This document shows positions 2,136-54,864 of a stretch of DNA of 64,000 bases, in pieces (within the stretch, counting starts at the first letter, position 1; every line of letters starts with the position of its first letter). Source of the DNA: a virus. The notes under the pieces are model-generated. The model was not told the origin of the DNA. It ran no database searches and saw only the letters and a program-made list of their open reading frames with translations. The DNA lies in IMG/VR virus record IMGVR_UViG_3300026512_000006, positions 1 to 64,000 of that record, one strand, 5' to 3'. Position numbers and translations under genes: made by a program.

Positions 2136-2475
2136 TGTAGTCCTTTATAATTTTATAGGCTGTTTCTATATCTACAGTGAGATGCACATTAAATGTATCA
2201 GGAATAGCAAATTGAGGTAAGCCTTTTGTGGATCCCTTTAATTTTATATATCTATCTACTGCTGCTCTAAATAGTTTTAAATGGTATATTGAGTTTTTTA
2301 TTCTAATTTTACTATTAGGACTTAAGTCATAAATATCTAAAAAGTTGTGAGCCTTGTAGGAAGTATTACTGTTGGACATATGATAAGATATTTGAGATTT
2401 TAGCCATGTTGTACGGGTAGTACTATTAATTTTTTCTAACTGTACTTTATACGTAAAATTATTTAGTTTGTTCAT
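2128..2475 (-). CDS. hypothetical protein (115 aa)
   Basis: ORF track; start overlaps the stop of the upstream gene (translational coupling). Confidence 0.6.
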   Translation of the reverse strand: MNKLNNFTYKVQLEKINSTTRTTWLKSQISYHMSNSNTSYKAHNFLDIYDLSPNSKIRIKNSIYHLKLFRAAVDRYIKLKGSTKGLPQFAIPDTFNVHLTVDIETAYKIIKDYNE

Positions 2476-3095
2476 AACTTTATTATCCTTTCTATTTCAG
2501 AACGTATCCTTTCTGAGGGTACTTTAGTTGTTATTTTAAAATACCTACGTACTGCTTTTAAGGAAGCTGAATGTGGTATTAAGCTTTTAGTAGCTAAAAG
2601 ACGATAGAAACGATAGATACGTAAGGGGTCTTCCATTATACGAGATACTGGATTATCTATAAAGCGAAGGCAATGATTCTGTATGTCTGTTTTACCTTTT
2701 CCAGTAGGATCCAGAATAGTGTTATCAGTAAGAGACATATAAAGAGCATTAATAGTAAAATCCCTTCTATCAGCATCAGTGGTAACAGTGCCAAGCTTGC
2801 CACCATTATTGTCAGTATCTTTACGAAAGTTTGAAAGTTCAAAGTGATGCCCTTGTTTTGAGATATTTAATACTAAGTAATGCTTGCCAGTTTGTTTTAC
2901 ATTCCAGCCAGCTTCTACGAAGGCTGTAGCCATTGCGTCATAAGGTGCATCTGTTACTATGTCAATATCTTTAGAGGGTAGACCTAGTAACAAGTCTCTT
3001 ACGTACCCTCCCACTATGTAGGATGATGCATTTAGTGAGCGTAGAATTATAGCTAGCTGTAGGATTATTAAATCTCTATGGTGTAGTGATTTCAT
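2472..3095 (-). CDS. class II nucleotidyltransferase, CCA-adding / poly(A) polymerase head-domain protein
   Basis: GGYVRDLLLG..DIDIV, RRDFTINA and EDPLRIYRFYR motifs typical of tRNA nucleotidyltransferase/PcnB head and neck. Only 207 aa (minimal form). Confidence 0.75.
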   Translation of the reverse strand: MKSLHHRDLIILQLAIILRSLNASSYIVGGYVRDLLLGLPSKDIDIVTDAPYDAMATAFVEAGWNVKQTGKHYLVLNISKQGHHFELSNFRKDTDNNGGKLGTVTTDADRRDFTINALYMSLTDNTILDPTGKGKTDIQNHCLRFIDNPVSRIMEDPLRIYRFYRLLATKSLIPHSASLKAVRRYFKITTKVPSERIRSEIERIIKL

Positions 3096-4066
3096 AATAA
3101 TTTAAGTAATAATTGTTTATAGACCTTACTATCGGCTTTTGCTGGTAACGTAGTTGATTTTACTAAGTTATCTACCTCTTCAATAGTGGTAAGTATAACT
3201 TCCATAACATCTTCTAATTGTTCATTTCCTTCTTTAATAGATTTAATGTAAGTTCTATCAAGTAAAGGAAAAGTTATTGTATTAACAGTTAATAGCTCTC
3301 GTACTTCAAATAAAACTCGTACGGCATGACTAAGTGCTTTATAGTCAATAGAAGTAACTGCGTTTTTAGTACGATTACCATATTGTGTTTTTATTAATTG
3401 TAGACGAGATATAATATAATCACGATCTAATGAGATATCAAATAATTTTCCTAATACAGAAAGATAGGTAGTATTTCCTTTAGTATTATTTTTAGTGTTT
3501 TTGGCTTGTATTATTTTTATATAACTGTAAGTATTATTAGCAATTATTGTTTCTAATGAAGTATTTGGGTATTCTTTAATTTGTTCTAAAAAATTTAGCA
3601 ATTCTTTATAACGTTTACCTTTAACATTGTATCGTTTACTTTGTCCTATTGCATAACCTAGGAAGGCATGAACATTACTATGAAGTAAGTTAGGGAGTTC
3701 TTTTAAAATTTCTTCTGATTGCTTAGTATAAAGTAATTGAGTATCTTTATGTTGCATACTGAATAGTAAATCAAGCGCTCCTGTTTCACCTTTTTTTAAA
3801 AGATGTAGAAACTTGTGGATAGACCATAGTTGAATATCTATATCTTCTAAATCATTACGGGATTTATTATTACCTGTAGTAGTAGTATAATGTTCTGCAT
3901 CTGTTTTAAGTAATAAAGATTCTTTAGATGGTATAAATATTCCTTTGTAATCTTTATCTGAATTAGAATTTTTAGTTCCATAAAGTCTTGAGCCTGACAA
4001 TGTCACGTAGATTACCTTGTAATCAGGGAATTGTTTATAAAATGGTTCTAGTAATTTAGCTATCAT
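3092..4066 (-). CDS. Pol-beta superfamily nucleotidyltransferase (RlaP-like, RNA-repair associated type)
   Basis: N-terminal LSGSRLYGTKNSNSDKDYKGIF matches the GS-x10-DxD NTase signature. Size and helical C-terminal half fit the 'predicted nucleotidyltransferase' family found next to RNA repair genes. Confidence 0.55.
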   Translation of the reverse strand: MIAKLLEPFYKQFPDYKVIYVTLSGSRLYGTKNSNSDKDYKGIFIPSKESLLLKTDAEHYTTTTGNNKSRNDLEDIDIQLWSIHKFLHLLKKGETGALDLLFSMQHKDTQLLYTKQSEEILKELPNLLHSNVHAFLGYAIGQSKRYNVKGKRYKELLNFLEQIKEYPNTSLETIIANNTYSYIKIIQAKNTKNNTKGNTTYLSVLGKLFDISLDRDYIISRLQLIKTQYGNRTKNAVTSIDYKALSHAVRVLFEVRELLTVNTITFPLLDRTYIKSIKEGNEQLEDVMEVILTTIEEVDNLVKSTTLPAKADSKVYKQLLLKLL

Positions 4067-8343: not shown

Positions 8344-8805
8344 TTACAACTCCCAAGGTTTCTTAGGGAGCGGTTCTGTTATTGATTGTTGGGCTTTAAT
8401 GGCTTTTACTTCTTCTTTAGTTTTATTATCTGCAGCTGCCTTAGTTTTTAGTTTATCTGCTTTTAGTTTTTCTTTTTCTGCTATTAAAGTTAGTCGTTTT
8501 TCCTCTTGCTTTGCAAAGGAGTCTATTTGAGATTGAGTTCTACCGAATGTTGGCATTTTAGTTTTCTTGCCAGCCGTTGGTGTTACAGACGGTTTAGAGC
8601 TAGCTGAAGGCTTAGAAGTAGTAGGTGCTGATGATTCATCCTCTGCAGCTTGTTTGAGGGCTGAGTAGCTTCTATTGAAGTCTGACGGCATGTTATTTAA
8701 GAAAGCCATTACAGCCGCTACTTCTTTGTATGTTAAGTTTAATGTTATTGATACTGTTTTCAAATTAATCTCCTTTAGTATTCTATTGAAGCGTACACTG
8801 TACAC
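8344..8805 (-). CDS. hypothetical protein with S/T/P-rich linker and Lys-rich coiled coil (153 aa)
   Basis: ORF track; AAAGGAG SD. Confidence 0.55.
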   Translation of the reverse strand: MYSVRFNRILKEINLKTVSITLNLTYKEVAAVMAFLNNMPSDFNRSYSALKQAAEDESSAPTTSKPSASSKPSVTPTAGKKTKMPTFGRTQSQIDSFAKQEEKRLTLIAEKEKLKADKLKTKAAADNKTKEEVKAIKAQQSITEPLPKKPWEL

Positions 8806-9057
8806 TTCTCACAATACTATATTTATTGTTCTCATCCGTTTTTCCTCTAACGGTTTGTCTAAAAGTATAGTTTCTCTTGAGTAGGGCTGGAAACATATAA
8901 AACAGAAGCCAAGCAGTTTTATTGAGTGTCAGACTATTCCTCTAGCAAAATAATATTTATCGTCTTCTATTTTCAATTAGACTAGCTATAATTATCATCT
9001 ATAGCAAAGAGCATACTTATTATTTAATCGACATATTAGTATACAAATATTGTCCAT

Positions 9058-9079
9058 AAGATACTCCGAAGAGTACCTT
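9058..9079 (-). terminator. stem-loop with UUCG tetraloop just after the JAMM gene stop
   Basis: Minus strand AAGGUACUC-UUCG-GAGUAUCUU (9 bp incl. one G-U). No clear U-tract, so it may be a stabiliser rather than a terminator. Confidence 0.35.
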
Positions 9080-9088
9080 AGGACAGTA

Positions 9089-10294
9089 TTAGTAACGAAA
9101 TAATGTATCTTCGTAGCTGTAGGTAATTTTTTCATCGATTTTAGTGTATTCTTCTTCTTGAAGCCATAAAATATCTTGTAAGTATAAGATATTTTTTATC
9201 GGGTTTATGGAAGTTAAAACATATTCATCTACTACGCATTCAAGATCTTTTAAAATCATTTTTAATTTTTCTTTAGACATTTTCTTTAATTCTTTTTCAG
9301 TATATAAAGAGATAGTATATTCTTCTTGAATTGCAGCAGCTATTGCTTTATATTCTAAAGAGGTAGGTGCTGGTATTTTTGTTATCGGTTTACTGAAAGA
9401 TTTAGTAGAGTTTATTTCGTAGTTATACTTTGAAATAAATGATTTTTCTTCTAAGTTTTCTTCTTTAACAAATTGAGTAGATGCATTGTATTTCAGCTTT
9501 TTAAAAAGTTCTCTAATATTATTTACTAATGTATTTATAGGAATATTATCCGCTACAGTGTAAGATAAATCGACAGGAACTACTCCTAAAAGTTTTTCTA
9601 CTTCTGAAGGATTTGTTGTTTCAGCATGAATTATTGAAGCACATCTATTCTTATGGTAAGTTATAGTATTAGATGTAGTTGTATTAGCTAGGCGATACTC
9701 TGTATGACAAATTTCTGTTCTATCTGATTTGTGTAACATAATGGAGCTAAATGATGGTTTTTGAAAATCTTTTTCTATTTCTGCTAAAGGAAAACAAATA
9801 CCTGGATCAGGGAATGTTGTAGATAAGTCAGTGCCACTAAATGTTGCCAAGTTACCAGGATGGCGATGTATTGTGCCAAGGTTCACAGATATCCATTCAA
9901 AAGATGCTGAAGGGAACTGTGCTTTTAGTTTGGTGCCAAATGTGGATTTTGTTAATTCATTAACTTTAGTGTTGTGAATTATTTTTAAGGAGTCACTCAT
10001 AGTATCAACATCTTTAAGATTGAAATCAATAGCTGCTGAACTTACAGTTTGTTTATAATTAAAATAGACTGTTGGTATTGCTATATCAATTATAGAACCA
10101 TCTTTAAATGTAAATCTACCATTGAGAAACCAGTAGTGTACTTGGTATTCATTGTGATGTGTAAGTGGTCCTGAATTAGTGGTGATAGCATTAATATCCA
10201 AATCTTTAAATAGAATTATACCTAAATTTTTAGTGTTAGTGTAATCTTCAATTGTTGGTAAGGTTATTGCGGTTGGTAGTACAAGTTTTTTCAT
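9089..10294 (-). CDS. JAB/JAMM (MPN+) metallopeptidase domain protein (401 aa)
   Basis: HRHPGNLATFSGTD = H-x-H-x7-S-x2-D JAMM signature at ~aa 154-167; AAGGAG SD; long C-terminal extension with a coiled coil. Confidence 0.7.
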   Translation of the reverse strand: MKKLVLPTAITLPTIEDYTNTKNLGIILFKDLDINAITTNSGPLTHHNEYQVHYWFLNGRFTFKDGSIIDIAIPTVYFNYKQTVSSAAIDFNLKDVDTMSDSLKIIHNTKVNELTKSTFGTKLKAQFPSASFEWISVNLGTIHRHPGNLATFSGTDLSTTFPDPGICFPLAEIEKDFQKPSFSSIMLHKSDRTEICHTEYRLANTTTSNTITYHKNRCASIIHAETTNPSEVEKLLGVVPVDLSYTVADNIPINTLVNNIRELFKKLKYNASTQFVKEENLEEKSFISKYNYEINSTKSFSKPITKIPAPTSLEYKAIAAAIQEEYTISLYTEKELKKMSKEKLKMILKDLECVVDEYVLTSINPIKNILYLQDILWLQEEEYTKIDEKITYSYEDTLFRY

Positions 10295-11366
10295 TTGGTA
10301 TCTCCTTAATTATGTTTGCTCTAATATATATTTCTAAAGATTTATCGACACATGCTGCTGCGTATGTTAGTGCTCCAGTGTGCATTATCCTATGAGTATA
10401 TGGAGAGGACGCATTTGAATGTGTTAGTGTTCTTATACCCTTTAGAGTCTTATTATCTAATGAACCTGTACATACTGATCTAAATACTATTTTGGGGAAT
10501 TCACAAGAAGTATTTACCCATTCATCTAGGCCAATAGTACAGTTTGAAGATATGTTACAAGACCACATAGGAGTAAGGTAGGTACCAGAGGTAGTATTAC
10601 CTAGTTTTATTAGTGATGTTCCGTAATAAGGCATGATAATGCCTTTTGTAAGGATTTGATGTGCAACTATATAGCATTCTTCATCAGGATACTCACCAGG
10701 TACTTTATTAATTTTATAATTTAAATTTGAAGTATTATCTTCAGGTAAACGTTGTATTTTTGTAGGAACTGTATTTGTAAATATTAGTAATTGATTATTG
10801 ATATTTTTATCTATTCTATCTTTACATGCTCTATGTTCTTCATATTTTTCAAATAAATTTTCTTTTTCTTCTATTGAACTATACGCATAAATTACAAGTT
10901 TAAAAATAGTCTTAGAAGTTAGTTCATTTGCAGATAGAAGACTCATAGCAGTTAATGGATGTAATGGATTTAATATTGTTTTATCATCAATTAATAGAGC
11001 GCCATAAAATCTTTCTTCTAGAGATACTTTAATTTTATTAATCTTATTTAGACATTCTTTAATTGTGCCTGCTTTATTTATAGTTATAATTGTAGAAGTT
11101 ATATTATTCATAGCAATATCGTAGTGTTCAGCAGAAAGTAAATTATTAGGATTTCTATCTTTAGCTACTATTCTATTTTCATTTAATAGTTCTTGGAATG
11201 CTTTAGTTTTAGGTATTGTTCTGAAACAAACATTACCATCTTTAAAAGTATCATCCGGGTATTCTAATAAAAAATCTATATCGATTGAATCTTTATATTT
11301 TGCTGATTCTTTAAATAATGTTGATTGTAGAACAGTGTTATGACTAAGTGCTGTTAAAGTGCTCAT
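10248..11366 (-). CDS. Cys-rich hypothetical protein (372 aa) between the E1-like and JAMM genes
   Basis: ORF track; ATGA overlap with the E1-like gene and 47-nt overlap with the JAMM gene; 10 Cys. The segment YPDDTFKDGNVCFRTI is only faintly E2-like. Confidence 0.6.
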   Translation of the reverse strand: MSTLTALSHNTVLQSTLFKESAKYKDSIDIDFLLEYPDDTFKDGNVCFRTIPKTKAFQELLNENRIVAKDRNPNNLLSAEHYDIAMNNITSTIITINKAGTIKECLNKINKIKVSLEERFYGALLIDDKTILNPLHPLTAMSLLSANELTSKTIFKLVIYAYSSIEEKENLFEKYEEHRACKDRIDKNINNQLLIFTNTVPTKIQRLPEDNTSNLNYKINKVPGEYPDEECYIVAHQILTKGIIMPYYGTSLIKLGNTTSGTYLTPMWSCNISSNCTIGLDEWVNTSCEFPKIVFRSVCTGSLDNKTLKGIRTLTHSNASSPYTHRIMHTGALTYAAACVDKSLEIYIRANIIKEIPNEKTCTTNRNNLTNN

Positions 11367-12364
11367 AAAGTTACTCCGGTTTCTGGTGTTATTAGGCCAT
11401 CATGGTTTAGTTGGAATGCGTAGTTTCTATCTGCTTTACGAACTGCGGTGCCGTCAAAGCTGAACTCTAATAATTCTTTATTTTGTTCTAAAGGATCGAA
11501 TGAAGGATCTGCTAATATTTCTAAGAATCCTATAGCCATACGTAGCTGGTTCATGAAGAAATTACTTAGTTGAATTACCCCATAAGATTCTACTTGTAAT
11601 GAAGTATCTTGAATAGGATTTAGATGTAAACTACATGAAGCATTACCATGAGTTGCTGAAATGAAACCGCCAAGTTTTGATAAAGATATTCTAGTTTCAA
11701 TATTTGGTGCTCCGTAGAATATATGTTGTTTATCCTTATTTAGTGTTCCATAATAGTCTCTCCAATAATGTCTGTTAGTTGTTGTTTTGTAAGATAGTCT
11801 AGTTAATTCATCTTCTAATAATTCTAGTTTGTGATTGTACCCAAGTGTTGCACTAGGATTTTTAGGAAATCTTATTAGGTTACTTACATCGATGTAGTCA
11901 TCCTCATAAATTACTGACTCATTAAATATATTAATTACATTAGTAAATTTAGATATTTCACTTAACCAATGTAATGTATTTACATTTGTACCTCCATAAC
12001 CTATAAAGCTAACTGAGTATTTAGCTGTTTTTACTTTTTTTAATAAAGTAGTTAAGTCTTTTTTTGTATACCCTAGTATTAGACATAATTGCTCAGTTGG
12101 AATTTGTTTTACATTAAATGTAGATGCAAACCATGGTGATATAGCGCATGCTGTTTTAGGTAAGTTAGCTTGTTCTTTAGCATAATTCATATTTAAATTA
12201 GAGGAAACAAATAATCTAGGTACAAATGAATCAATTACTGGATTTAATTTTCCTTCTACAGGTCTTTCATACATTGCGTATCTTGTTCTTATTTGATTTA
12301 TTAAATATTCAGTAAAATCTACGTAGTATGTTCGTGGAGTTGACCATTCTTGTTCTGTGTTCAT
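11363..12364 (-). CDS. ThiF/MoeB/E1-like adenylyltransferase (333 aa)
   Basis: VSFIGYGGTNVNTLHWL (GxGGxG Rossmann) followed by VIYEDDYIDVSNLIRF (D-x-D...SNL-x-R), the E1-superfamily nucleotide-binding signature. A ~115-aa N-terminal extension precedes it. Confidence 0.7.
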   Translation of the reverse strand: MNTEQEWSTPRTYYVDFTEYLINQIRTRYAMYERPVEGKLNPVIDSFVPRLFVSSNLNMNYAKEQANLPKTACAISPWFASTFNVKQIPTEQLCLILGYTKKDLTTLLKKVKTAKYSVSFIGYGGTNVNTLHWLSEISKFTNVINIFNESVIYEDDYIDVSNLIRFPKNPSATLGYNHKLELLEDELTRLSYKTTTNRHYWRDYYGTLNKDKQHIFYGAPNIETRISLSKLGGFISATHGNASCSLHLNPIQDTSLQVESYGVIQLSNFFMNQLRMAIGFLEILADPSFDPLEQNKELLEFSFDGTAVRKADRNYAFQLNHDGLITPETGVTL

Positions 12365-12443
12365 GTTGTTTTCCTATGTTAATAAATGTTTAATTTAGTG
12401 TGACTAAGTAAGACCTCCTGAGAGGCCTTTATAGACAAACTAG

Positions 12444-12560
12444 TTAGATACCTGATTTTGATGAAGTCTGTAAAGATGCTCCACTTGATTGAGTTACTGA
12501 TGTATTTTCTGTAGTATCTGTGCCTGCAATTGCTGCTGCGATTTCTTCTGCTAATGTCAT
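12444..12560 (-). CDS. 38-aa peptide ORF (not in ORF track): MTLAEEIAAAIAGTDTTENTSVTQSSGASLQTSSKSGI
   Basis: ATG 2 nt after the stop of the 85-aa ORF, with a GGAGA SD inside that ORF's end. Helical N-terminal half, Ser/Thr-rich C-terminal half. Lies directly upstream of the E1-like gene. Confidence 0.4.
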   Translation of the reverse strand: MTLAEEIAAAIAGTDTTENTSVTQSSGASLQTSSKSGI

Positions 12561-12562
12561 AG

Positions 12563-12820
12563 TTATTCTCCTTTTTCTTCGTCTGGTTTAATATTTACTG
12601 GAATATCTACTTCTACAGTGCCTTCAAGTTTGAATACATTAATAGCTGCAGTTGAGCATGCAAGAGCTTTTACTTGTTTTAGAAGTTCTTTTTTAGTCAT
12701 ACGTTTAGTAATAATCTTACCATTAATTTCTAGTACATATTTACCTGGTTTAGCAGTACGCTGTTTTTTAGCGGATAGTTCTGTTAAGAGTTGATCGATT
12801 AGTGATGTTGGTTTAGACAT
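12563..12820 (-). CDS. hypothetical protein (85 aa), possible beta-grasp-like; ends ...EEKGE
   Basis: ORF track; first gene of the coupled block. The pattern KYVLEINGKIITK-helix-INVFKLEGTVEV is compatible with a small beta-alpha-beta fold (inference). Confidence 0.55.
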   Translation of the reverse strand: MSKPTSLIDQLLTELSAKKQRTAKPGKYVLEINGKIITKRMTKKELLKQVKALACSTAAINVFKLEGTVEVDIPVNIKPDEEKGE

Positions 12821-18342: not shown

Positions 18343-18810
18343 TTATTTTCCTTTATAAATTAAATTTTTTAATTTAGCAAAATCTTGTTTTACTAATCCA
18401 TAATCACCGTTTGGTTGATATGTATGTATATAGCTATTTATACGAATATTTTGACCTTTACACCCTTTTTTTAATATTACAGATATTTCATCATCTATTA
18501 CTATGGAATAATCGTAGTTTAATGAAATTAAGTTTACATTTGATATTAGTTTATTTGTATCTCCTTTTAATTTGAAAGGTAGATGTGGCTGAAGTTTTTC
18601 TAGTTTCCATGCACTGAATACAAATACATCAATATTATATTTTTTAATTAGTCTAGCTAGTCTTGTTACTTTTTTAGGGTAAGGATTAAAGCAATTGTAT
18701 TCTTTTTTGAAGTTATTTCTTTTATATTTTTTATACCTTTTAATTCTTTCATGTGCTCGATACTGATTCAATACTCCGTCAACATCTAAAAAAATAGCTG
18801 TAGTTTTCAT
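18343..18810 (-). CDS. HAD-superfamily phosphatase-like protein (155 aa)
   Basis: N-terminal FLDVDGVLN = HAD motif I (DxDGx). Confidence 0.6.
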   Translation of the reverse strand: MKTTAIFLDVDGVLNQYRAHERIKRYKKYKRNNFKKEYNCFNPYPKKVTRLARLIKKYNIDVFVFSAWKLEKLQPHLPFKLKGDTNKLISNVNLISLNYDYSIVIDDEISVILKKGCKGQNIRINSYIHTYQPNGDYGLVKQDFAKLKNLIYKGK

Positions 18811-19072: not shown

Positions 19073-19822
19073 TTAGCAGAGAGCATATGAAGATTTTTCA
19101 AGACCTTTTACTAACTTTGTTGTATTTATACTAAAGTCTTTTTCACAAAATTCTTCAAGATAATTGCCTTCAGCTATAACTTTGAGAGCTTCTTTGTAGA
19201 GTTCTCGTAATTTAGACATGTTATTAGGATGAGCTTGTAGTTCATCATGTATATGCGATACTTGAAAGTCTGCATTTTCTACTACGTAACGTATTACAAA
19301 GGCGTCTAAACTATGCACTACATTAGGAGCTAATGAAGTTTTTACATTTGATGGCATATTCTTTTCATAACGATAAGGTAAGTTAAGGCCTTCTTGTTCG
19401 ATAATTCCATCTATGTGTTGAGTTACTTTGACATGAGCTACATGTCCATCTGGGAGAGCCCATTCGTGGAACATAGTAGTATTATCCCATCTATCGTTGA
19501 GAGCTTTTAGGACATTCATAGCGCCGGGGAATAACTCTTGAAGGGTATCGTAGAAAGCATGAAGTTCTTCAGTATCTTCTCCAAAGGCTTCAAGAGGTTG
19601 TAGACGACTATTATACATAGTAGTCATTACAGGCTTTTTACAGAAAGAGCGTACTTGTTTAAATGACATTCCATCGAAGATAGTAGAGTGAGGTATTTTT
19701 TCTAACATACGTGTAGCTACTAGACTATAAGGGTCGGCTCTAATAGTTGTTTCGATATAGTTATTTTTATTTGTTTTAATATTACGTATTTCTGCTAAAA
19801 TTTGTTGTTTAGTGCGTTTCAT
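19073..19822 (-). CDS. T7-like (N4 RNAPII-type) RNA polymerase, C-terminal catalytic subunit (249 aa)
   Basis: RSFCKKPVMTTMYNS ~ T7 motif B RSVTKRSVMTLAYGS. APNVVHSLDA ~ APNFVHSQDG. SHIHDELQ ~ motif C IHDSFGT. C-terminal SSYALC ~ DFAFA. Has its own AGGAGG SD 4 nt upstream of the ATG. Confidence 0.85.
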   Translation of the reverse strand: MKRTKQQILAEIRNIKTNKNNYIETTIRADPYSLVATRMLEKIPHSTIFDGMSFKQVRSFCKKPVMTTMYNSRLQPLEAFGEDTEELHAFYDTLQELFPGAMNVLKALNDRWDNTTMFHEWALPDGHVAHVKVTQHIDGIIEQEGLNLPYRYEKNMPSNVKTSLAPNVVHSLDAFVIRYVVENADFQVSHIHDELQAHPNNMSKLRELYKEALKVIAEGNYLEEFCEKDFSINTTKLVKGLEKSSYALC

Positions 19823-19975: not shown

Positions 19976-20347
19976 CGTTGTATTCAAGTAAGGGCGTTAA
20001 TCTTACTTCGTTATTAAGTTACCAAATACATAACCACGTAACTCTTTAGGTATTCTACCATCATAAAGGTCTGCGCGTTTATTTATATTTATTTAACTTA
20101 ATAACTGCTTAATATTTCTATTAAGACTAGACTATATCATCTCCCGTTCTGGGAGTTCCGCACTTCGAATACACTTGTATTCTACGGACTTCATCTACTG
20201 TTCTAGTAGGTATGTCCTAGTCGTTGCACCTTCAAAGAGATTCCTCTCTAAGCTTGGCTCATGATTGCCTTCAGCGTTATCTGTTAAGGGTTCCCATGAA
20301 TTCACGGAATATTTTTAGAATAGCATTCCTGTTAAACTGGGCGATTC
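19976..20347 (-). mobile_element. group I intron (372 nt, no ORF) inside the RNAP middle-subunit gene
   Basis: The intron interrupts the conserved DATASG|LQ motif A. The exon ends in U and the intron ends in G. An R-like element GUGCAACGACUAGGAC (20214-20230) and an S-like element GAUGAUAUAGUCUAGUC (20125-20141) have complementary GACUA/UAGUC (P7). GCCC 5 nt into the intron can pair with exon GGGU (P1). The region is GC-rich and structured relative to the exons. Confidence 0.8.
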
Positions 20348-21019
20348 ACCCGAAGCTGTTGCGTCTAACCCCATATTATGTCCTATTGGATTGCCTTTTA
20401 TAACACCTTCGTACCATGCGTAGATAGCTTTTATAAGAAGTTGTGGGGTATCTGCTATAGCTATATACTTATTTAAAGCTTCTTCATTAATTTCATTATT
20501 TATAAAGATTTCTTTAATGACTTTATTAGCTTCTGTGATACGTTTAAACCATACATCTTTATCATAGCCTAAGCAATTTGCTATATCTATTTTGAGGTAT
20601 GTCATGCCCTCTGAGGTTAGTAATTCTTTGTCTGAGAAGCTTAACATAGCTTTACGGTATTCATTGCCTTGTATGTTACAGTGATACCCTTGTGAGTACA
20701 TTCGGCCTCTTTTGTCATATTTCCATCCAAAGTAGAATTTATTGCCATTTTCTAGTAAGTAGTCTATTACGTTGTTTGTTTCTTTGTCACGTAGCTTATA
20801 AGACTTTACACGTTCTTTTTCTTCTATAGCTGATAGAGGTTTGCTTGATGGCTTTAATGTATCTGTAAGTAAATGTAGAATATTCTCATTTAATTCCCAT
20901 GGAATTGCTTGAAGTTTATTGATTGCATTTTTATTTACTCGTTGCCCTACAAAGTTTCCTCTGCCTAATACTAGTGTGTCTTTGTCTTTAGTTAATAAAT
21001 GAGATACGATACGTTTCAT
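20348..21019 (-). CDS. T7-like RNA polymerase middle subunit, exon 1 (224 codons)
   Basis: WKYDKRGRMYSQGYHCNIQGNEYRKAML ~ T7 DWRGRVYAVSMFNPQGNDMTKGLL (T/DxxGR). LKIDIANCLGYDK ~ LKIHGANCAGVDK. GLDATASG ~ motif A FDGSCSG. The track ORF then runs into intron-encoded ESPSLTGMLF-stop. Confidence 0.85.
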
Positions 21020-28518: not shown

Positions 28519-29290
28519 GTTAATAGATACCCCCCATAAGGACGCTAGAAGAATGGCGCCAGACACACGACAATATGTAACTGTAGAAAAGATAAAGAAC
28601 TTACTACCTAAGAAAACTAATATAGCAGTTACGGAAGAAGTTGTTGAGCTAATAAATAGAATGGAAGATGATACTGGACTTCCTCAAGAGCTATTGGAAG
28701 AAGATGTAATGTCTTATACCCATTTACTGGGCGGAATGAGAGGAGTAGGATTAAAAGACTTAGTGAATGCTGTTAAGTACTGTAACCTACGTAGAAATTA
28801 TGGCAATAAAGAAGCATGGTCTATAGTATTTCCAGAGAAGTACAACGCTTTAGTAGAAGCTAATAAGCAAATTGATAACCATGTAAGTATGTATACTAGC
28901 AGTAAGCTAGTCGTTGCTATGGATAAAGAAATGCTTATTCCTATACACTTACAGTATGCCCCTTACTTCCATGCAGCTGTTAAGAAGCAATTTGATTTAA
29001 TGAATGGCAATGCCTCTAAAGATACTAAAGGTAATGAGATGAATGTATCTCCTATGGTTCAACATTTAGCTGCTAAAGAATTAGCTAATCTTACCAGACA
29101 GCCTGAGGAGCAGAAGCTTGCTGTATCTATTACTCCTAGTGACGCAGCTATGGGATTACAAAGTGATATGAATGACCAGTTGAAGCAGATAGTGGCTAAT
29201 CAGAAAAGACAGCTTGAGGATGGTGCAGATATTCTAGATGTACAAGTACTTGGCATTGACTTCTCTGATGTTGGGAAAGACAATGAGTAA
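28508..29290 (+). CDS. putative terminase small subunit (260 aa)
   Basis: Called by position only: it lies immediately upstream of the large terminase gene and overlaps it. Confidence 0.35.
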   Translation: MSSKLIDTPHKDARRMAPDTRQYVTVEKIKNLLPKKTNIAVTEEVVELINRMEDDTGLPQELLEEDVMSYTHLLGGMRGVGLKDLVNAVKYCNLRRNYGNKEAWSIVFPEKYNALVEANKQIDNHVSMYTSSKLVVAMDKEMLIPIHLQYAPYFHAAVKKQFDLMNGNASKDTKGNEMNVSPMVQHLAAKELANLTRQPEEQKLAVSITPSDAAMGLQSDMNDQLKQIVANQKRQLEDGADILDVQVLGIDFSDVGKDNE

Positions 29291-31001
29291 CATTAGAAAG
29301 GCACAGAAGAAATTTGACCTAGATAAAGCATTAGATAGTATAGATCTATCGTTCAATGGGTATGTGCCTTCAGAAGATGCTTTGGAGTTCTTTGCATTGA
29401 TGAGACTAGTGCAAGGAGAGGATTTTGAATTTAGTACTCCACTTTTTCACTATTGGTTAGTTGACCTAATGTTTGGTAATATAACCAGAGATCACTATCC
29501 GTATTCTAAGGAAGTTAGAGATACTATTACTATTAACGCTAAGAGGATATGTATTGTGGCATCTCGTGGCGTTGCAAAATCTACTGTAGTCACTGCTTTT
29601 TACCCAGTGTATTGTGCTATTAAAGGCAAGACTCCTGATGGGATTAAGTCTGAGTTTCACTTACTAGTTGCTGCTTCACAGCAAGGTGGTGGTAGAGTAA
29701 TGGCAAAGGCTGTACAGTCTTTATGTGAGGACAGTGTGTTCTGTCAGAATTACTTTGAGTCAATGAGGTTTACTGAAACTGAAAGTGAGTTCATTCGTAA
29801 AGGAAATACAAAAGTAAAGAATAGAGTATTTCTTGCTAGGTATATAGGTATTGGTGGAGGCATCCGGGGGGTGCGTTCTAACATAGGGTCAGAGAGACCA
29901 GACCATATAATCTTTGATGATGTTATCCTAAATTCAGACACAGCATACTCAGATACTATAATGAATAGTTTAAGAACTACTATAAAAGCAGATGCGATAA
30001 ATGCGCTTAGAGGCGGTGGACGTGGTAAGATATTCTCTGTTGCAACCCCCTTTCATTTACTTGATCCAGTTATTGAGATGCTAACAGGAGGTGCGTACAC
30101 TCCAGTGGCTATACCTATATGTGAGAAGATATATGAAGGTATGCCTGAGGAGGAGTTTGTAGGTGTTTGGCCTTCTATGCACCCGTATGAGGCTGTAATA
30201 GAACAGTATGAGTCAGCAGTTGCTTCTAATGCTACGAGGGAATTTAATCAGGAAAGAATGCTTAGAATTAGTTCAGATGAAGACAGAATGATAAGTGATA
30301 ATATGATTGAGTGGTATAGCAGAAAAGATTTGCTAAAGAATATAGGTGCTTATAATATCTACATAACTACAGACTTTACAACAACTTCTGAAGCTAAGTC
30401 GGACTTCTCTGCGTTAGCTGCATGGGCTGTTAATAGCAACCGAGACTATTACTTAGTAGACTTATGTGTAAAGAGGCAAGGCATAGCAGAGCAGTATAAT
30501 GAGTTGTTTAGGATGGTAAATTTCTGGTTAAGTCATGGTAGGTCTGTAGAGGTAGGCATTGAGGTAGATGGCCAGCAGAAGGCTCATTTATTTGCACTAA
30601 AGGAGATGATGCTTAAAAGGTCCGAGTGGTTTACCTTTGCTAGACAGAAAGGAACTAAGATAGGTAGTCAGGGAATTCTTAGCAGAAACTCTGGAGGGAA
30701 TAAGCATGAGAGATTTAGGATGATGCTTCCACAGTTCCAGAACCATAAGATACATTTTCCATATGAATTAGAGAATACACCGGATATGAGAGAAGCACTG
30801 ACTCAACTTAAGTATACTACTTGGGAAGCTTTTGGAGGGCACGACGATTTCCCGGACACTATCAGTCAATTAGGAATGATAGAGTTGGTATTCCCTATGG
30901 TAAGTCCTGGAAGCTATAGTGCTAATAGTAGAAAGGATAGGTCACTATGGGATGATATCGAAGATACAAGTGATAGTTCTGCTTACTCAAGTTACACTTA
31001 G
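29283..31001 (+). CDS. terL: terminase large subunit
   Basis: Walker A-like IVASRGVAKST, Walker B-like HIIFDDV, C-terminal nuclease-like TTDFTTTSEAKSDFSA...EVDGQQ. ATG 29283 overlaps the upstream stop. Confidence 0.8.
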   Translation: MSNIRKAQKKFDLDKALDSIDLSFNGYVPSEDALEFFALMRLVQGEDFEFSTPLFHYWLVDLMFGNITRDHYPYSKEVRDTITINAKRICIVASRGVAKSTVVTAFYPVYCAIKGKTPDGIKSEFHLLVAASQQGGGRVMAKAVQSLCEDSVFCQNYFESMRFTETESEFIRKGNTKVKNRVFLARYIGIGGGIRGVRSNIGSERPDHIIFDDVILNSDTAYSDTIMNSLRTTIKADAINALRGGGRGKIFSVATPFHLLDPVIEMLTGGAYTPVAIPICEKIYEGMPEEEFVGVWPSMHPYEAVIEQYESAVASNATREFNQERMLRISSDEDRMISDNMIEWYSRKDLLKNIGAYNIYITTDFTTTSEAKSDFSALAAWAVNSNRDYYLVDLCVKRQGIAEQYNELFRMVNFWLSHGRSVEVGIEVDGQQKAHLFALKEMMLKRSEWFTFARQKGTKIGSQGILSRNSGGNKHERFRMMLPQFQNHKIHFPYELENTPDMREALTQLKYTTWEAFGGHDDFPDTISQLGMIELVFPMVSPGSYSANSRKDRSLWDDIEDTSDSSAYSSYT

Positions 31002-33065: not shown

Positions 33066-34658
33066 ATGGATGCAGTAAGTTATGCTCATAGTGCTAAACA
33101 AGCCAAGAGAATCACAGATTTAATTAGGGTAGGAGAGCTTGAACCTGCTAGTGTTGAGTTAGGTACTGAATGGTATGTACCAACAACAGGTAAAACATAT
33201 AAACGTATTAATGATGGTTCTAATGATGTTTGGGTAGATATTAATAGTAGTGGAGCTAATGCTGCTATTAAACAAAGTGAAGAATTTATAGTAGGTACTG
33301 CAAGTGGTAATTACGATGGCAGCAGTTTAAACACCTTTCCTATACAAGCAGGATATTATCCTGAGTATGTACTAGTAACTCTTAACGGTAGAGTATTAGC
33401 TAAAGGGGATTTTACAGCTACTGACGGGTATACAATTGTATTATCTTCAGACGCTGCTAATACAGATATTATAGAAGTTCTTGCATTTGGTACATTTGTT
33501 ATAGCAGACCACTACAGAAAGGCCGAAACTGATAATTTATTGGGAACTAAAGCAGATAAAAATGGTAGTGTGAGTGATACTTTTAAAGCGGCAATAGCTA
33601 CTAGTAATGATGAAGTATTGCCTAAGGGACAGTATATATCACTAACTTCAAAATATATAAAGCCGTCTAATAATGTCTTATTTACTAAGACAGCTCCTGC
33701 TGAATTCAGCATTCCTGAGGGGTTTAAGGTTACTGTAAATGACACTATTGTAGAGGTAACTGCAGAAGCTACATTAAACTTAAATGATGATTTAGACACT
33801 GGCACTAAAACAGCCGGTACAGACTACTATGTTTATGTAAAAGCAGATAGCACCTTTTACATTAGTGCAGACAAAACTATAACAGCTGATAGACTTATTG
33901 GTGGTTTTCATTATGGTTTAACCGCTGAAGATGAAGCAAAGACTGGGAATAAAACAGATGATGATATGGTTGCTATTCGTGGTATCAATCAGTATAGTTT
34001 TTGGGACTTGAAATTTAGACCAGTAGCAAACCCAGAAGGTATGGTTTTTGTTGGTGGTCATTGGTATGATATTTATCTTTTAAATAGCGAACATATCACA
34101 AATGGAACTTCTAAAGCTGGTGCTGTTATAGCTGGTGGTGCTACAGATAACGGTCGTGGAGTTCCAAAAATACCATTGGCTTATGGTGGTGATGGAGATG
34201 TTGATTATGGAAAGTTTACTTGGTTTCAAGCTTGTGAAATTGCTAAATCACACGGTAAAGAACTTATAGACTATGCGGAATTTCCTACTATCGCCTATGG
34301 TGTTGATGAGGGCAAATCATCTGATGACTATGAAACAACTGCTGGAAAAATTGAACACTACTCTCATCTTACTTCAAAGTTTGGTATTGAACAAGCTACT
34401 GGTGCTCAACACATTTGGGGTAAAGATGTGGGAGGTAATAGAGACGAGGATTCTACATCGTGGGGATGGAGAGACAAAGCAGATGCTAGAGGTCAAATAT
34501 ATGCACTTAATGATAAACATATTACAGCGGTGCTTCTGGGTGCGACTCGTGGCAGTGGTGCTCATGCTGGTTCTCGTGCCTCGTATTGGAGCAGTTATGT
34601 TTGGAGCTCGAGCTGGAGCATTGGTTCTCGTTTCGCTTGTGAAGGGATATTCGAATGA
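33066..34658 (+). CDS. tail fibre / receptor-binding protein with C-type-lectin (Mtd/FGE-like) C-terminal domain
   Basis: The C-terminus AVLLGATRGSGAHAGSRASYWSSYVWSSSWSIGSRFACEG fits the GG.W..G...GSR...W......G.R..C pattern of CLec-fold phage receptor-binding domains. Confidence 0.6.
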   Translation: MDAVSYAHSAKQAKRITDLIRVGELEPASVELGTEWYVPTTGKTYKRINDGSNDVWVDINSSGANAAIKQSEEFIVGTASGNYDGSSLNTFPIQAGYYPEYVLVTLNGRVLAKGDFTATDGYTIVLSSDAANTDIIEVLAFGTFVIADHYRKAETDNLLGTKADKNGSVSDTFKAAIATSNDEVLPKGQYISLTSKYIKPSNNVLFTKTAPAEFSIPEGFKVTVNDTIVEVTAEATLNLNDDLDTGTKTAGTDYYVYVKADSTFYISADKTITADRLIGGFHYGLTAEDEAKTGNKTDDDMVAIRGINQYSFWDLKFRPVANPEGMVFVGGHWYDIYLLNSEHITNGTSKAGAVIAGGATDNGRGVPKIPLAYGGDGDVDYGKFTWFQACEIAKSHGKELIDYAEFPTIAYGVDEGKSSDDYETTAGKIEHYSHLTSKFGIEQATGAQHIWGKDVGGNRDEDSTSWGWRDKADARGQIYALNDKHITAVLLGATRGSGAHAGSRASYWSSYVWSSSWSIGSRFACEGIFE

Positions 34659-52134: not shown

Positions 52135-52573
52135 GTATGCAATAGCATTCGCAGAAAATGTTGACACTGAAGATACGTATAAGATACTGCAGGAAGCTGT
52201 AGTAGGAAAAGAGGGTACAGCTAATTCGCGAATGCGAAAGGCCAGAATATTACGTGCAAGGATAGTAAAAGCTATAGCCGAGAATAAGCTTATATGCCTC
52301 ATGTACCTGAGTAAGCCTATCGCTGCATGTATTGTAGATGATAGAAAAGGTAATATGCTTATTAATATAAATGTATTGAAAGCATACAGGTTATTGCCTA
52401 AAACTGGATTGCTTATGCACTACATTGTAAATAATGTATTTAAAGGTGAGGATGTATACTTCATGGACACCACCGGACAATTTGCTAGTGTAGGCGAATT
52501 AGTTGATGACAGTATATACAAAGTTAAACCAACTGTTGCTGCCACGTTACAAAAACTATATGGAGAAATATAA
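52109..52573 (+). CDS. hypothetical protein coupled to the ketosynthase gene (154 aa)
   Basis: ORF track; 26-nt overlap with the KS gene and ATG overlap with the next gene. No motif recognised. Confidence 0.5.
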   Translation: MVVVKSLNEYAIAFAENVDTEDTYKILQEAVVGKEGTANSRMRKARILRARIVKAIAENKLICLMYLSKPIAACIVDDRKGNMLININVLKAYRLLPKTGLLMHYIVNNVFKGEDVYFMDTTGQFASVGELVDDSIYKVKPTVAATLQKLYGEI

Positions 52574-54864
52574 TGGGAGGGCATACACTAGTAGGTAAAA
52601 TATTTAATGCTATACTAGACCCTATAGATGCCTTATTAGACAGCATATTCGGTAGTACAGAAACTATGGTCGACGTCCAAATAACTAATTTACTTACTCC
52701 TGGGGAAGCAGATAACAGGGCTAGAAGACAAAGTATTAGGAACTCTCATGGAGAACTATCCGTTTACGGATCTCAATATAGAGCATTTCAAAGAAACTAC
52801 AGACAGAAGTACAGTGCTAAATTTTTAACTAATCTTGGATACCTACCGTCAGATACTGCAACTACAAGGGTTCTAGATCCTGTAGCAGTTAAAGACTATG
52901 TAGCTACATATGACGACGCTATTGTCGGCGTATCCCAAACATTTATTAAGTATATGTCCGAGGAAGAAGCTGCATGGGACTGGATGGAAGATAATATAGG
53001 ATGGAGTAATGCTAATAATATAGCTATTAATGATGATAAGACATGGATAGATCTAGTAGTTACTAATGATTCTACAGATATTACTATGGATTTTACTAGG
53101 GAGCCTGAAGAAACTATATATGATAATTTAACTACTAATTATTCATATGATGCAGAAGAACGTACTGTCGAACTGTTTACTGGTCCAAATACTTATGATG
53201 TAACAGGCACGACAGATAGTGGTACTACAAATATAAGAGTGACTATTGATGATACTGAATTTTATAATGAAGATATAGACGAACTTACAGATTATGTTAT
53301 TACTACACCGTTAGAAGAGCCAGGCAGTTACACTATAAAAGTATATGAAACTGCTGACGACACAGAATCTCTTACATCAGAGACTACAATTGATATCATT
53401 GCTACTGCAGAACTGTATGATGTACCAGCATTGGATACTACAGATCTAGACGGTTTCTACAGGACTATAGTAGTGTTGCAAAGTGACGATACAACTTCAG
53501 TTAATATAGATACTTCTGTAGAGACAGCGTCTTGGGATATACCATCCTCTACTATAGAAAATGAAAAAATGATTGTAATGTATGATAGAGGAGAAACCGA
53601 ATGGTATTACTACTCGGAAGATTTGAGTACTGTTCCTGATTCTTTGTATACATTAGCTGCTGTAGATATAACCGCAATTATTCCTCTCAAAGAAGATAAC
53701 CATATTTTTAATGAGAATAGAAAAATGGAACGAATGTTAGATAAATTAAATATAACAAGAGCTTCACTGTTGCCTACATTACATAACGGGGATATAGACT
53801 CGGCCTACTTAATGACTGGGATTTATCCTCACACACAAAGTCAGGCAGGGATCAAAGCAATATTTAATATATTTGATTTAATGCTTGAAGGTAGTGGAGA
53901 TGTTAGTATAGCTATGAGTAAGCTGAGTATGGTATACGCATTTACTATAGGTAAGTCTACCGTAAATGCTAAAGTGTTAAAAACGGGTACTTATAGTAAC
54001 TCTACATCTAATGGTGTTAAGACTCTGATTTATCAAGCAACTTCTACACAGTATAAAAAAATAGTTATTAGCAACTACTCCCATACTTACACAATTAGTG
54101 GGCAAACTATTAGTGCAACTTTCAGTGATGCTAAAGATATCTCTAGAATGGTCTTACCGCTTACTGTATTAAACGGACTAGTGTATAAAGATTTTGTAGC
54201 AGTGTATGAGGATAGCTTAAGCTTGTTAGCATACTCTGTTGAGGTAGTAGAGATATCTTGGGAAGAGAGCGCTGCTTTTTCTGTTATATTAAAGATAGCG
54301 GCAGTAGTGGTAGCAGTATGGTCATTGGGTACGGCAATACAAGTATCTTATGCTTTATGGACTGCAGGAGCATACCTATCATTGGCTATATATGTAGCAA
54401 CTACGATAGCAATAGGTATTGTAGTAAGTATAGGCGTTACTTTAGCTATGGATTTTCTTGTCAATACTCTTGGGCTTGATCCTTCTATAGCTGCACTAGT
54501 TGCAATGGCAGCTGCCTACGCAGGTGCTAAGTTTGCAAATATATCCTTTGGAAAGGAACAGTGGCTACAATTAGCTAATACTATTGTTGAAGAGGGTTCT
54601 GATATAACTAGTGAGCAAACACTAGCAGTACTTAGGGAAAGTGAAGAGTACTCCAAGGAGATGCAAGAAAAGAATGAAAGTATAATGGAGCTACTGCAAG
54701 CATTTGATACTGGTGTAGTAGGAATGTTTAATATGAGTCTTACTAAGGAGTACTCTCCCTATCAAATAGCTGAAGTTTATGTTGATAGTAAAGTAAATAT
54801 TACCGATTTAGAGATGTTGCTAGATGTCAATGGGGTTGTTCGCAGTAAATTAGAATTAGAGTAA
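52573..54864 (+). CDS. large virion protein with C-terminal cluster of transmembrane helices (763 aa)
   Basis: ORF track; ~110 aa of hydrophobic helices (AAFSVILKIAAVVVAVW...AMAAAYAGAKFA). Confidence 0.6.
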   Translation: MGGHTLVGKIFNAILDPIDALLDSIFGSTETMVDVQITNLLTPGEADNRARRQSIRNSHGELSVYGSQYRAFQRNYRQKYSAKFLTNLGYLPSDTATTRVLDPVAVKDYVATYDDAIVGVSQTFIKYMSEEEAAWDWMEDNIGWSNANNIAINDDKTWIDLVVTNDSTDITMDFTREPEETIYDNLTTNYSYDAEERTVELFTGPNTYDVTGTTDSGTTNIRVTIDDTEFYNEDIDELTDYVITTPLEEPGSYTIKVYETADDTESLTSETTIDIIATAELYDVPALDTTDLDGFYRTIVVLQSDDTTSVNIDTSVETASWDIPSSTIENEKMIVMYDRGETEWYYYSEDLSTVPDSLYTLAAVDITAIIPLKEDNHIFNENRKMERMLDKLNITRASLLPTLHNGDIDSAYLMTGIYPHTQSQAGIKAIFNIFDLMLEGSGDVSIAMSKLSMVYAFTIGKSTVNAKVLKTGTYSNSTSNGVKTLIYQATSTQYKKIVISNYSHTYTISGQTISATFSDAKDISRMVLPLTVLNGLVYKDFVAVYEDSLSLLAYSVEVVEISWEESAAFSVILKIAAVVVAVWSLGTAIQVSYALWTAGAYLSLAIYVATTIAIGIVVSIGVTLAMDFLVNTLGLDPSIAALVAMAAAYAGAKFANISFGKEQWLQLANTIVEEGSDITSEQTLAVLRESEEYSKEMQEKNESIMELLQAFDTGVVGMFNMSLTKEYSPYQIAEVYVDSKVNITDLEMLLDVNGVVRSKLELE

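Follow-up and report, generated by a model that had tools for sequence, protein, structure and literature searches.

Modules that pair an E1-fold adenylase with a JAMM peptidase have recently emerged as bacterial antiviral systems, among them type II cyclic-oligonucleotide-based antiphage signalling systems (CBASS), Bil and Bub. In type II CBASS, the two enzymes are Cap2 and Cap3, and the substrate is not a β-grasp protein: it is the flexible tail of the CD-NTase, which ends in Gly and is cleaved there by the JAMM protein. The archaeal SAMP/UbaA/HvJAMM1 and Thermus TtuB/TtuC systems combine a minimal E1 and a JAMM protein with a β-grasp modifier ending in Gly-Gly, and do so without a canonical E2 or E3. 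In the QbsC/QbsD/QbsE and MoeZ/Mec+/CysO trios, the JAMM protein trims the residues that follow the C-terminal Gly of a ThiS/MoaD-fold carrier before the carrier is adenylated by an E1-like enzyme. The E1-like enzymes MccB, PaaA and GrcB act on short peptides (MccA, PaaP and GrcA, respectively) that are encoded immediately upstream. Finally, the modifier Pup is small and intrinsically disordered; one of its segments forms a helix, and its conserved, Gly-containing C-terminus must be matured before ligation. It is activated by a glutamine-synthetase-fold ligase via a γ-glutamyl phosphate. Here, we describe a gene block of an uncultured N4-like phage that encodes a short peptide, an E1-like protein, a protein of unmatched fold and a JAMM protein. 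The block occupies positions 9,089 to 12,820 of a 64,000-nucleotide stretch of viral DNA (IMG/VR virus record IMGVR_UViG_3300026512_000006, positions 1 to 64,000), hereafter the window.

Gene layout and conservation of the block

The block consists of five open reading frames (ORFs) on the minus strand. These had been listed in an earlier note made from the sequence alone, and their positions, lengths and C-termini were reproduced when the DNA was re-read. In gene order, they encode an 85-aa accessory protein, p85 (12563..12820, ending …EEKGE); a 38-aa candidate precursor peptide, p38 (12444..12560, sequence MTLAEEIAAAIAGTDTTENTSVTQSSGASLQTSSKSGI, ending …SKSGI); a 333-aa predicted E1/ThiF-fold adenylyltransferase (11363..12364); a 372-aa protein whose predicted fold has no known match (10248..11366); and a 401-aa predicted JAMM/MPN+ metallopeptidase (9089..10294). 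The motifs GYGGTNVN and SNLIRFP of the 333-aa protein, HRHPGNLATFSGTD of the 401-aa protein and the 10 Cys residues of the 372-aa protein were likewise found as described. The further claim that all five genes are translationally coupled held at three junctions: a gap of 2 nucleotides (nt) between p85 and p38, an ATGA overlap between the 333-aa and 372-aa genes, and an overlap of 47 nt between the 372-aa and 401-aa genes. It did not hold at the junction of p38 and the 333-aa gene, where a spacer of 79 nt contains a stable hairpin.

The assignment of the phage as N4-like was borne out by its portal protein, which is ∼37% identical to Schitoviridae portals, and by split T7-type RNAPII genes on the minus strand at 19073-19822 and 20315-21019 (PF00940, E-values of 1.7e-8 and 4e-4, respectively). 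The polymerase genes lie upstream on the same strand, and the block is therefore placed in the early/middle gene region. Its setting is AT-rich, as stated earlier: the G+C content is 0.30 in the block and 0.37 in the structural half of the window.

A word-indexed search returned 91 homologues of the 333-aa protein, 62 of the 401-aa protein and 28 of the 372-aa protein, all metagenomic and unannotated. According to a full profile search, the 372-aa family comprises 361 clusters at 50% identity. Gene order was established in loci retrieved from assemblies and IMG/VR (16), from metagenomes (35) and via distant members of the 372-aa family (3), with the five window proteins as queries against the ORFs of each locus. 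The order (p85)-p38-E1-372-JAMM, in which p85 is the optional member, was present in all related loci of sufficient length, very distant ones included (∼30 non-redundant). Conservation of the module is far above chance.

Scans of all five window proteins against Pfam, PHROGs, PADLOC and NCBIfam yielded nothing above threshold, which sets the block apart from known cofactor or nucleotide cassettes. It also differs from PRTRC (the ParB-related, ThiF-related cassette) and from other ThiF/JAB cassettes named in NCBIfam in that its proteins had no NCBIfam match; the best homologue reached an E-value of 0.069 for PRTRC_ThiF (cut-off 145 bits). GenBank phages contained no match to the block by blastn or to the E1-like protein by tblastn. 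No relative of the E1-like protein was found in 185,579 species genomes by a pattern-based scan, which does not prove absence. In the family libraries, GenBank phage records and literature that we searched, the module is undescribed. Eight IMG/VR contigs of at least 100 kb (L057, L062, L066, L069, L082, L084, L096 and L104) encode portals 50-77% identical to that of the window. None of the close portal relatives, several of them on such contigs, was among the contigs in which the pattern-based scan found the E1-like protein. This suggests, but no more than suggests, that the module is an accessory cassette of sporadic occurrence even among close relatives.

The E1-like, JAMM and cysteine proteins

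The AlphaFold2 model of the 333-aa protein, computed from a 67-sequence alignment, had a pLDDT of 91.3 and a pTM of 0.91. Foldseek matched this model to MccB, ThiF, Uba4, PaaA, UBA5, MoeB, UBA3 and Cap2 with a probability of 1.00 and E-values of 1e-6 to 2e-4. The best structural matches were MccB, ThiF, Uba4, PaaA and MoeB, with Cap2 ranked lower (E-value of 1.5e-4). The window protein itself matched neither Pfam ThiF nor any other library entry; against solved structures, a single-sequence search found nothing and a profile search was marginal. Among its homologues, 4 of 17 matched ThiF (PF00899, best E-value of 1e-5), and homologue P0088 carried PF00899 in its precomputed annotation. In an hhalign alignment to E. 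coli MoeB, the ATP-binding motifs of the 333-aa protein fell on GLGGLG and DFD..SNLQRQ, with GYGGTNVN on GLGGLGCA and YEDDYIDVSNLIRF on LDFDTVSLSNLQRQ (the alignment is indicative only). Residues G122, G124, G125, N129, N162, R165 and K179 were invariant in the 67 sequences of the family. The nucleotide loop G122-N129 is encoded at 11978-12001 and SNLIRFP, residues 161-167, at 11864-11884, both on the minus strand. R28-Y29, a further landmark together with K179, resembles the RY(x)RQ arginine-finger helix and may correspond to it. Together, the model, its structural matches, the Pfam matches of homologues and the hhalign alignment agree with the E1-type signature reported earlier: the nucleotide-binding signature is intact, and the prediction that the 333-aa protein is an E1/ThiF-fold adenylase is well supported.

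No Cys was invariant or near-invariant in the 67 sequences, and the conserved flexible loop of residues 250-262 (P250, Q257, E259, Y261, G262) contains none. Given this lack of a conserved Cys, the protein appears to adenylate in the manner of MoeB and MccB, and not to form a thioester as canonical E1 enzymes of the Uba1/UBA3/Cap2 type do. His239, in the sequence SATH (11648-11650, minus strand), was invariant in all 67 sequences and falls by eye at the Mg-binding Asp of MoeB (Asp130, in TDN), a position that the hhalign alignment stopped short of. If the alignment by eye is right, the replacement of Asp by His239 is unusual for the active site of an E1-fold adenylase. In the model, ∼110 residues precede the Rossmann core. 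In most homologues, the N-terminus is extended by 100-350 poorly conserved residues that match nothing in Pfam (for example, L002 1251-1870, L003 6077-7000 and L005 5954-7000); the window protein does not have this extension and is among the few minimal versions.

The 401-aa protein had been credited with a complete JAMM motif, and all five motif residues, E49, H143, H145, S153 and D156, were invariant in 20 divergent homologues with the canonical spacing HxHx7SxxD. In the window, Glu49 is encoded at 10148-10150 and H143-R-H145-PGNLATF-S153-GT-D156 at 9827-9868, both on the minus strand. Judged from these residues, the protein is a predicted JAMM/MPN+ metallopeptidase with a complete metal-site motif. 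Pfam Prok-JAB matched the window protein below threshold (E-value of 0.064) and matched only one of the 20 members. A single-sequence search of solved structures found nothing relevant, and the sole matches of the family profile in the PDB were to AMSH-LP, exactly at the motif (E-value of 0.6). Alignment of the family with Rpn11 by hhalign placed the motif in register with an E-value of 0.022 (indicative only). The C-terminal half of the protein varies freely among homologues.

The AlphaFold2 model of the 372-aa protein had a pLDDT of 85.5 and a pTM of 0.83. Foldseek found no match to it in the PDB (best E-value of 0.93), and its only match in BFVD was an uncharacterized homologue from a gut podovirus contig. 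Pfam scans of 28 and of 39 divergent members of the family yielded nothing. Of the 10 Cys residues, only Cys299, in the sequence SVCTG (codon at 10470-10472, minus strand), was invariant across the 39 divergent members. Other conserved residues are G122, N133 and H136 (in NPLHP), Q237, P246, Y248-G249, N271, H316-x-N318 and S321. This conservation looks like that of an active site built around one Cys. The family, with its 361 clusters, confidently predicted but unmatched fold and single invariant Cys, is a candidate new class of transferase. A faint likeness to E2 enzymes had been noted in an HPN-type segment; the Cys of this segment, Cys47 in GNVCFRTI, is not conserved, and the confident model had no UBC-fold match. 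We therefore rejected the 372-aa protein as an E2/UBC protein.

The 38-aa peptide, p85 and the spacer hairpin

Every locus that extended far enough had a homologue of p38 immediately upstream of its E1-like gene. The ∼30 non-redundant homologues have an amphipathic start (L..IAAAIAG.DT), a Ser/Thr-rich middle that varies freely in length and sequence, and an end of the form …SL.T.K(S/A).SG, in which Ser-Gly is near-invariant and a Lys is conserved 2-4 residues before the Gly. The Ser-Gly is followed by 1-9 unconserved residues (I, IAC, AK, S, VAA, Y, NR, K, RW, C, VHPN, GSSKNPL, DNSDRLDC and others). The window peptide has the conserved …SL.T.SKSG end, with the near-invariant residues at Ser36 and Gly37, and a tail of one residue. 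The pN/pS ratio of p38 was 0.36-0.65 in comparable pairs, and each copy of the gene was preceded by a proper Shine-Dalgarno sequence, GGAG or GAGG, at a distance of 7-12 nt from the peptide ATG, irrespective of the upstream gene. The 38-aa ORF is thus a real, conserved gene with a Gly of invariant position. The peptide is probably disordered.

The pattern of a near-invariant Ser-Gly with a short unconserved tail of 1-9 residues is that of JAMM-trimmed ubiquitin-like and sulfur-carrier precursors, and supports a model in which p38 is trimmed. The predicted processing site, Ser36-Gly37 / Ile38, is at 12447..12455 on the minus strand, cleavage being suggested by conservation. The logic of trimming followed by adenylation is known from Cap3 on CD-NTase tails, HvJAMM1 on SAMPs and QbsD on QbsE (see also PMC1779556 and PMC10097602).

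The earlier note had proposed that both small ORFs carry a penultimate Gly as trimmed tags do. This stood for p38 and not for p85. The proposal would make p85 a ThiS/ubiquitin-like tag trimmed to Gly84, with the 372-aa protein as a divergent E2. Sequence features of p85 outline an N-terminal helix, a basic linker and a small β-α-β core; the order predicted for this core, read from the alignment, is β-β-α-β-β, which is consistent with such a tag, as are the faint match of p85 to Pfam ThiS (E-value of 0.11) and the G-E, G-N or G-A-E endings of many family members. Against the proposal, ThiS was matched by only 1 of 14 members, and hhalign gave a probability of 0.2% for E. coli ThiS (indicative only). 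The family alignment contained no invariant residue, and its C-termini vary in length, several having no Gly (…ETLEEI, …LDEDIA, …EEAEVL). About half of the related loci had a p85 homologue, and many that keep the rest of the module did not. The KGE ending of p85 is encoded by AAA-GGA-GAA, that is, by the AAGGAG to which ribosomes bind for translation of p38, which lies inside the last p85 codons (Lys83-Gly84-Glu85; 12568..12573, minus strand), and GGAG likewise ends unrelated upstream genes in other loci. The penultimate Gly of p85 is therefore most simply explained as a by-product of translational coupling, in which the Shine-Dalgarno sequence of p38 overlaps the end of p85. On these sequence grounds and the overlap of its terminal Gly with the Shine-Dalgarno sequence, we rejected p85 as a ubiquitin-like protein. 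With no UBC-fold match for the 372-aa model either, the combination of a p85 tag and a divergent E2 is very improbable.

The spacer between p38 and the E1-like gene contains the stem-loop AAGGCCUC-UCAG-GAGGUCUU (12410..12429, minus strand; extended structure 12396-12442), with a ΔG of -17.7 kcal/mol and a z score of -3.1. Immediately downstream of the peptide stop codon, a stretch of 70 nt folded with z < -2 in 25 of 30 non-redundant loci, compared with 4 of 28 for control windows within each of the three enzyme genes. The hairpin sequences differ and their position is constant. In two loci (L015 6702-6777 and L016 1768-1843), a tRNA-Gln(UUG) in the spacer replaces the hairpin. A terminator scan of the window called none on the minus strand at this spacer, and most of the spacer hairpins have no U-tract. 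We accordingly rejected a canonical intrinsic terminator and describe the element only as a conserved stem-loop. For the same reasons, we infer that it is an attenuator, a processing site or a 3'-stabilizing element that lets the peptide exceed the enzymes.

Proposed pathway, alternatives and phage context

The combination of an invariant Gly, a disposable tail, a JAMM protein and an E1-fold adenylase leads us to propose a pathway of trimming, adenylation and transfer through Cys299. The peptide would be expressed in excess over the enzymes, since a hairpin or a tRNA separates p38 from the downstream genes. The JAMM protein would remove the unconserved tail after Ser-Gly; in the window, Ile38 would be lost and Gly37 exposed. 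The E1-like enzyme would bind ATP and adenylate the Gly37 carboxylate, acting, like MoeB or MccB, purely as an adenylase. The acyl-adenylate would then be attacked by Cys299 of the 372-aa protein to form a thioester, and this protein, a putative new carrier or ligase doing the job of an E2, would attach the peptide to host or phage proteins, at their amino groups, as a Pup-like or ubiquitin-like mini-tag. The JAMM protein could also reverse the tagging. The biological role of such a pathway might be host takeover or counter-defence.

The earlier framing of the block, as a phage conjugation or de-conjugation system or a peptide-modification pathway, is the best general frame. Within it, we lean, with somewhat less than even confidence, towards a self-contained phage module that matures a ∼40-residue ribosomal peptide and activates its C-terminus, with handoff to a Cys protein for conjugation. 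We counted in favour of tagging that the 372-aa gene overlaps the E1-like gene by ATGA, that no transporter or immunity gene recurs beside the block in related loci, and that its neighbours are RNA-repair, NAD-salvage-like and other accessory genes. A complete phage tagging system, with a disordered modifier of ∼37 residues, JAMM maturation, E1-fold adenylation and a new Cys-dependent transferase fold, is a more tentative proposal. Several observations weigh against these interpretations. With His239 in place of the Mg-binding Asp, the adenylation chemistry may differ. The E1-like enzyme has among its best structural matches MccB and PaaA, whose products are small-molecule RiPPs (peptides made on the ribosome and modified post-translationally) and not protein conjugates. 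The peptide p38 is far too short for a β-grasp ubiquitin-like protein, and the JAB library matches of the 401-aa protein are sub-threshold. For the 372-aa protein, no similarity to an E2, an E3 or any ligase was detected, and its role in transfer is a guess because it is based on one invariant Cys.

Since MccB and PaaA are E1-like enzymes with short ribosomal peptides as substrates, the matches to them raise the alternative of a RiPP-type pathway. Here, p38 would be a precursor whose C-terminal region is modified by the 333-aa protein, either by nucleotidylation, as in MccB, or by cyclization onto the nearby conserved Lys, as GrcB does with Cys. The JAMM protein would remove a follower or leader, the 372-aa protein would tailor the peptide, and the product would be a bioactive peptide, either diffusible or intracellular, that is set free when the cell lyses. 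In microcin C and lantibiotic operons, the precursor gene is upstream and a hairpin precedes the enzyme genes. The module shares this layout, with a precursor-like gene directly upstream and a hairpin between it and the enzyme genes, as do the MccB, PaaA and GrcB systems, which also have an extra N-terminal region before the adenylation domain. In the module, the ∼110 N-terminal residues of the 333-aa protein could bind peptide, and p38 is Ser/Thr-rich with a conserved Lys close to the Gly. ThiF-like enzymes perform varied chemistry on RiPP precursors (PMC12250964). However, the four known RiPP classes that depend on a ThiF-like adenylyltransferase (TLAT) neither use a JAMM peptidase nor are found in phages (PMC12250964), whereas the JAMM protein and the novel Cys protein are obligatory partners in the module. 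The 333-aa protein is only 10-16% identical to MccB, PaaA and GrcB. After the predicted trimming, p38 ends in Gly, which is typical of transferred E1 substrates, and not in the Asn of MccA, in Glu-Glu or in Cys, and its freely varying middle fits a linker, not a core peptide. Neither the core residues that define the known clusters of microcin C, pantocin A, GRC and enterofaecin (C-terminal Asn; Glu-Glu; Glu…Cys) nor their partner genes (transporter, radical S-adenosylmethionine enzyme, MccD/E) were found, and no transporter, immunity or typical RiPP tailoring gene recurs near the block. We regard a RiPP-type pathway as a serious rival on the unlikely side. If its product is a RiPP, the module would define a new ThiF-dependent class and a rare phage-borne one.

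The pairing of E1 and JAMM proteins had also been compared with CBASS, Bil and Bub. Membership in these systems was not supported: the block has no CD-NTase, no E2 and, by sequence, no β-grasp ubiquitin-like protein, and no CD-NTase, effector or E2 was found among its neighbouring genes. Compared with type II CBASS, the module further differs in having no conserved E1 Cys and no PADLOC match, in being phage-encoded and in using as substrate a free-standing peptide of ∼40 residues. A second way to relate the module to these systems is that it counters them. The JAMM protein might strip the cGAS conjugates of host type II CBASS or the tail-protein conjugates of Bil, with the E1-like protein and the peptide as a decoy or competitor. 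It is consistent with this that E1 and JAMM proteins are the enzymes of host CBASS, Bil and Bub (PMC10097602 and PMC10557695), that the block is located among accessory, likely counter-defence genes in the window and in L002, and that its distribution among related phages is sporadic. By contrast, the four genes, including a substrate-like peptide of their own, are strictly co-conserved, which argues for a self-contained pathway and not a lone deconjugase. The PADLOC models of Cap2, Cap3 and Bil likewise showed no similarity, and the JAMM family is very distant from Prok-JAB. Pure deconjugation is therefore improbable.

An E1-like protein without a catalytic Cys, a Gly-trimming JAMM protein and a Cys protein also recall QbsCDE and CysO/Mec+/MoeZ (Iyer et al. 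2006, PMC1779556). In a sulfur relay parallel to ThiS/ThiF, MoaD/MoeB, TtuB/TtuC or QbsE/QbsC/QbsD, the adenylated Gly-ended peptide, or p85, would be converted to a thiocarboxylate, with Cys299 carrying a persulfide, for thio-modification of tRNA, DNA or a cofactor. The neighbouring genes concern tRNA and RNA, in keeping with this, and the likeness to the SAMP and TtuB systems would allow a dual logic of conjugation and sulfur transfer. To our knowledge, however, all known sulfur carriers are β-grasp proteins, whereas the sole conserved Gly-ended product of the module is a peptide of ∼37 residues; p85 has no conserved C-terminal Gly. The Qbs and CysO carriers are accompanied by sulfur-transfer or biosynthetic enzymes, and no rhodanese, cysteine desulfurase or thiolation enzyme was seen among the block genes or recurrent neighbours. 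The E1 of the SAMP and TtuB systems has a rhodanese or catalytic Cys context, and the module differs from these systems in that its candidate modifier is a short peptide ending in Ser-Gly and is accompanied by an extra protein of unmatched fold. A sulfur relay is quite improbable, and it, pure deconjugation and the use of p85 as a ubiquitin-like tag are all less likely than peptide tagging or a RiPP-type pathway.

For tagging by p38, the nearest precedent for the modifier itself is Pup. The module peptide has no sequence relation to Pup; PafA, Dop and proteasome genes are absent from the module; and activation would be by an E1-like adenylase, unlike that of Pup. Relative to the described systems, the new components are the probably disordered peptide substrate and the Cys protein of unmatched fold, and a virulent N4-like phage is an unusual place for them. 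If p38 is a tag, the module would add to ubiquitin-like proteins and Pup a third way of conjugating small tags, one that was assembled independently and by which a virus marks host or viral proteins. A virus-encoded E1/JAMM module would mean that phages share such chemistry and that an E1 can serve a free disordered peptide. The four-gene system is simple and could be tested by heterologous reconstitution.

The neighbours of the block vary among loci. In the window, they include a tRNA nucleotidyltransferase (PolyA_pol, 2472-3095), an RlaP-type nucleotidyltransferase (3092-4066), a DNA-polymerase exonuclease subunit, an HNH protein and a HAD_SAK_2 protein (18343-18810), the three with coordinates being RNA/tRNA-repair-type genes on the strand of the block. 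L002 encodes RtcB and an RNA ligase at 8653-10969. This cluster of RNA/tRNA-repair-type genes suggests a counter-defence neighbourhood. Genes resembling nicotinamide phosphoribosyltransferase, NMN adenylyltransferase (GRFQPxHxGH) and ThyX (RHR…S…SxRY), as judged by eye, recur upstream of the module in related loci; such NAD-salvage-like and ThyX-like genes are at L003 2716-4731, L012/L013 5354-5928, L005 4495-5238 and L015 5566-6309.

The structural half of the window contains an ORF of 1330 aa (57410-61402) with no Pfam match at E ≤ 0.001 and further large unannotated ORFs at 52573-54864, 55545-57362 and 29238-31001. In 13 of 29 non-redundant loci, a reverse transcriptase gene lies ∼1 kb downstream of the JAMM gene; that of L002 (6925-7842) matches Pfam RVT_1 and is preceded by a stretch of ∼700 nt with no called genes. 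In the window contig, no reverse transcriptase turned up within the first 14 kb. The window encodes, at 33066-34658, a tail-fibre-like protein with the second domain of Mtd (PF21916), the type of protein that diversity-generating retroelements target.

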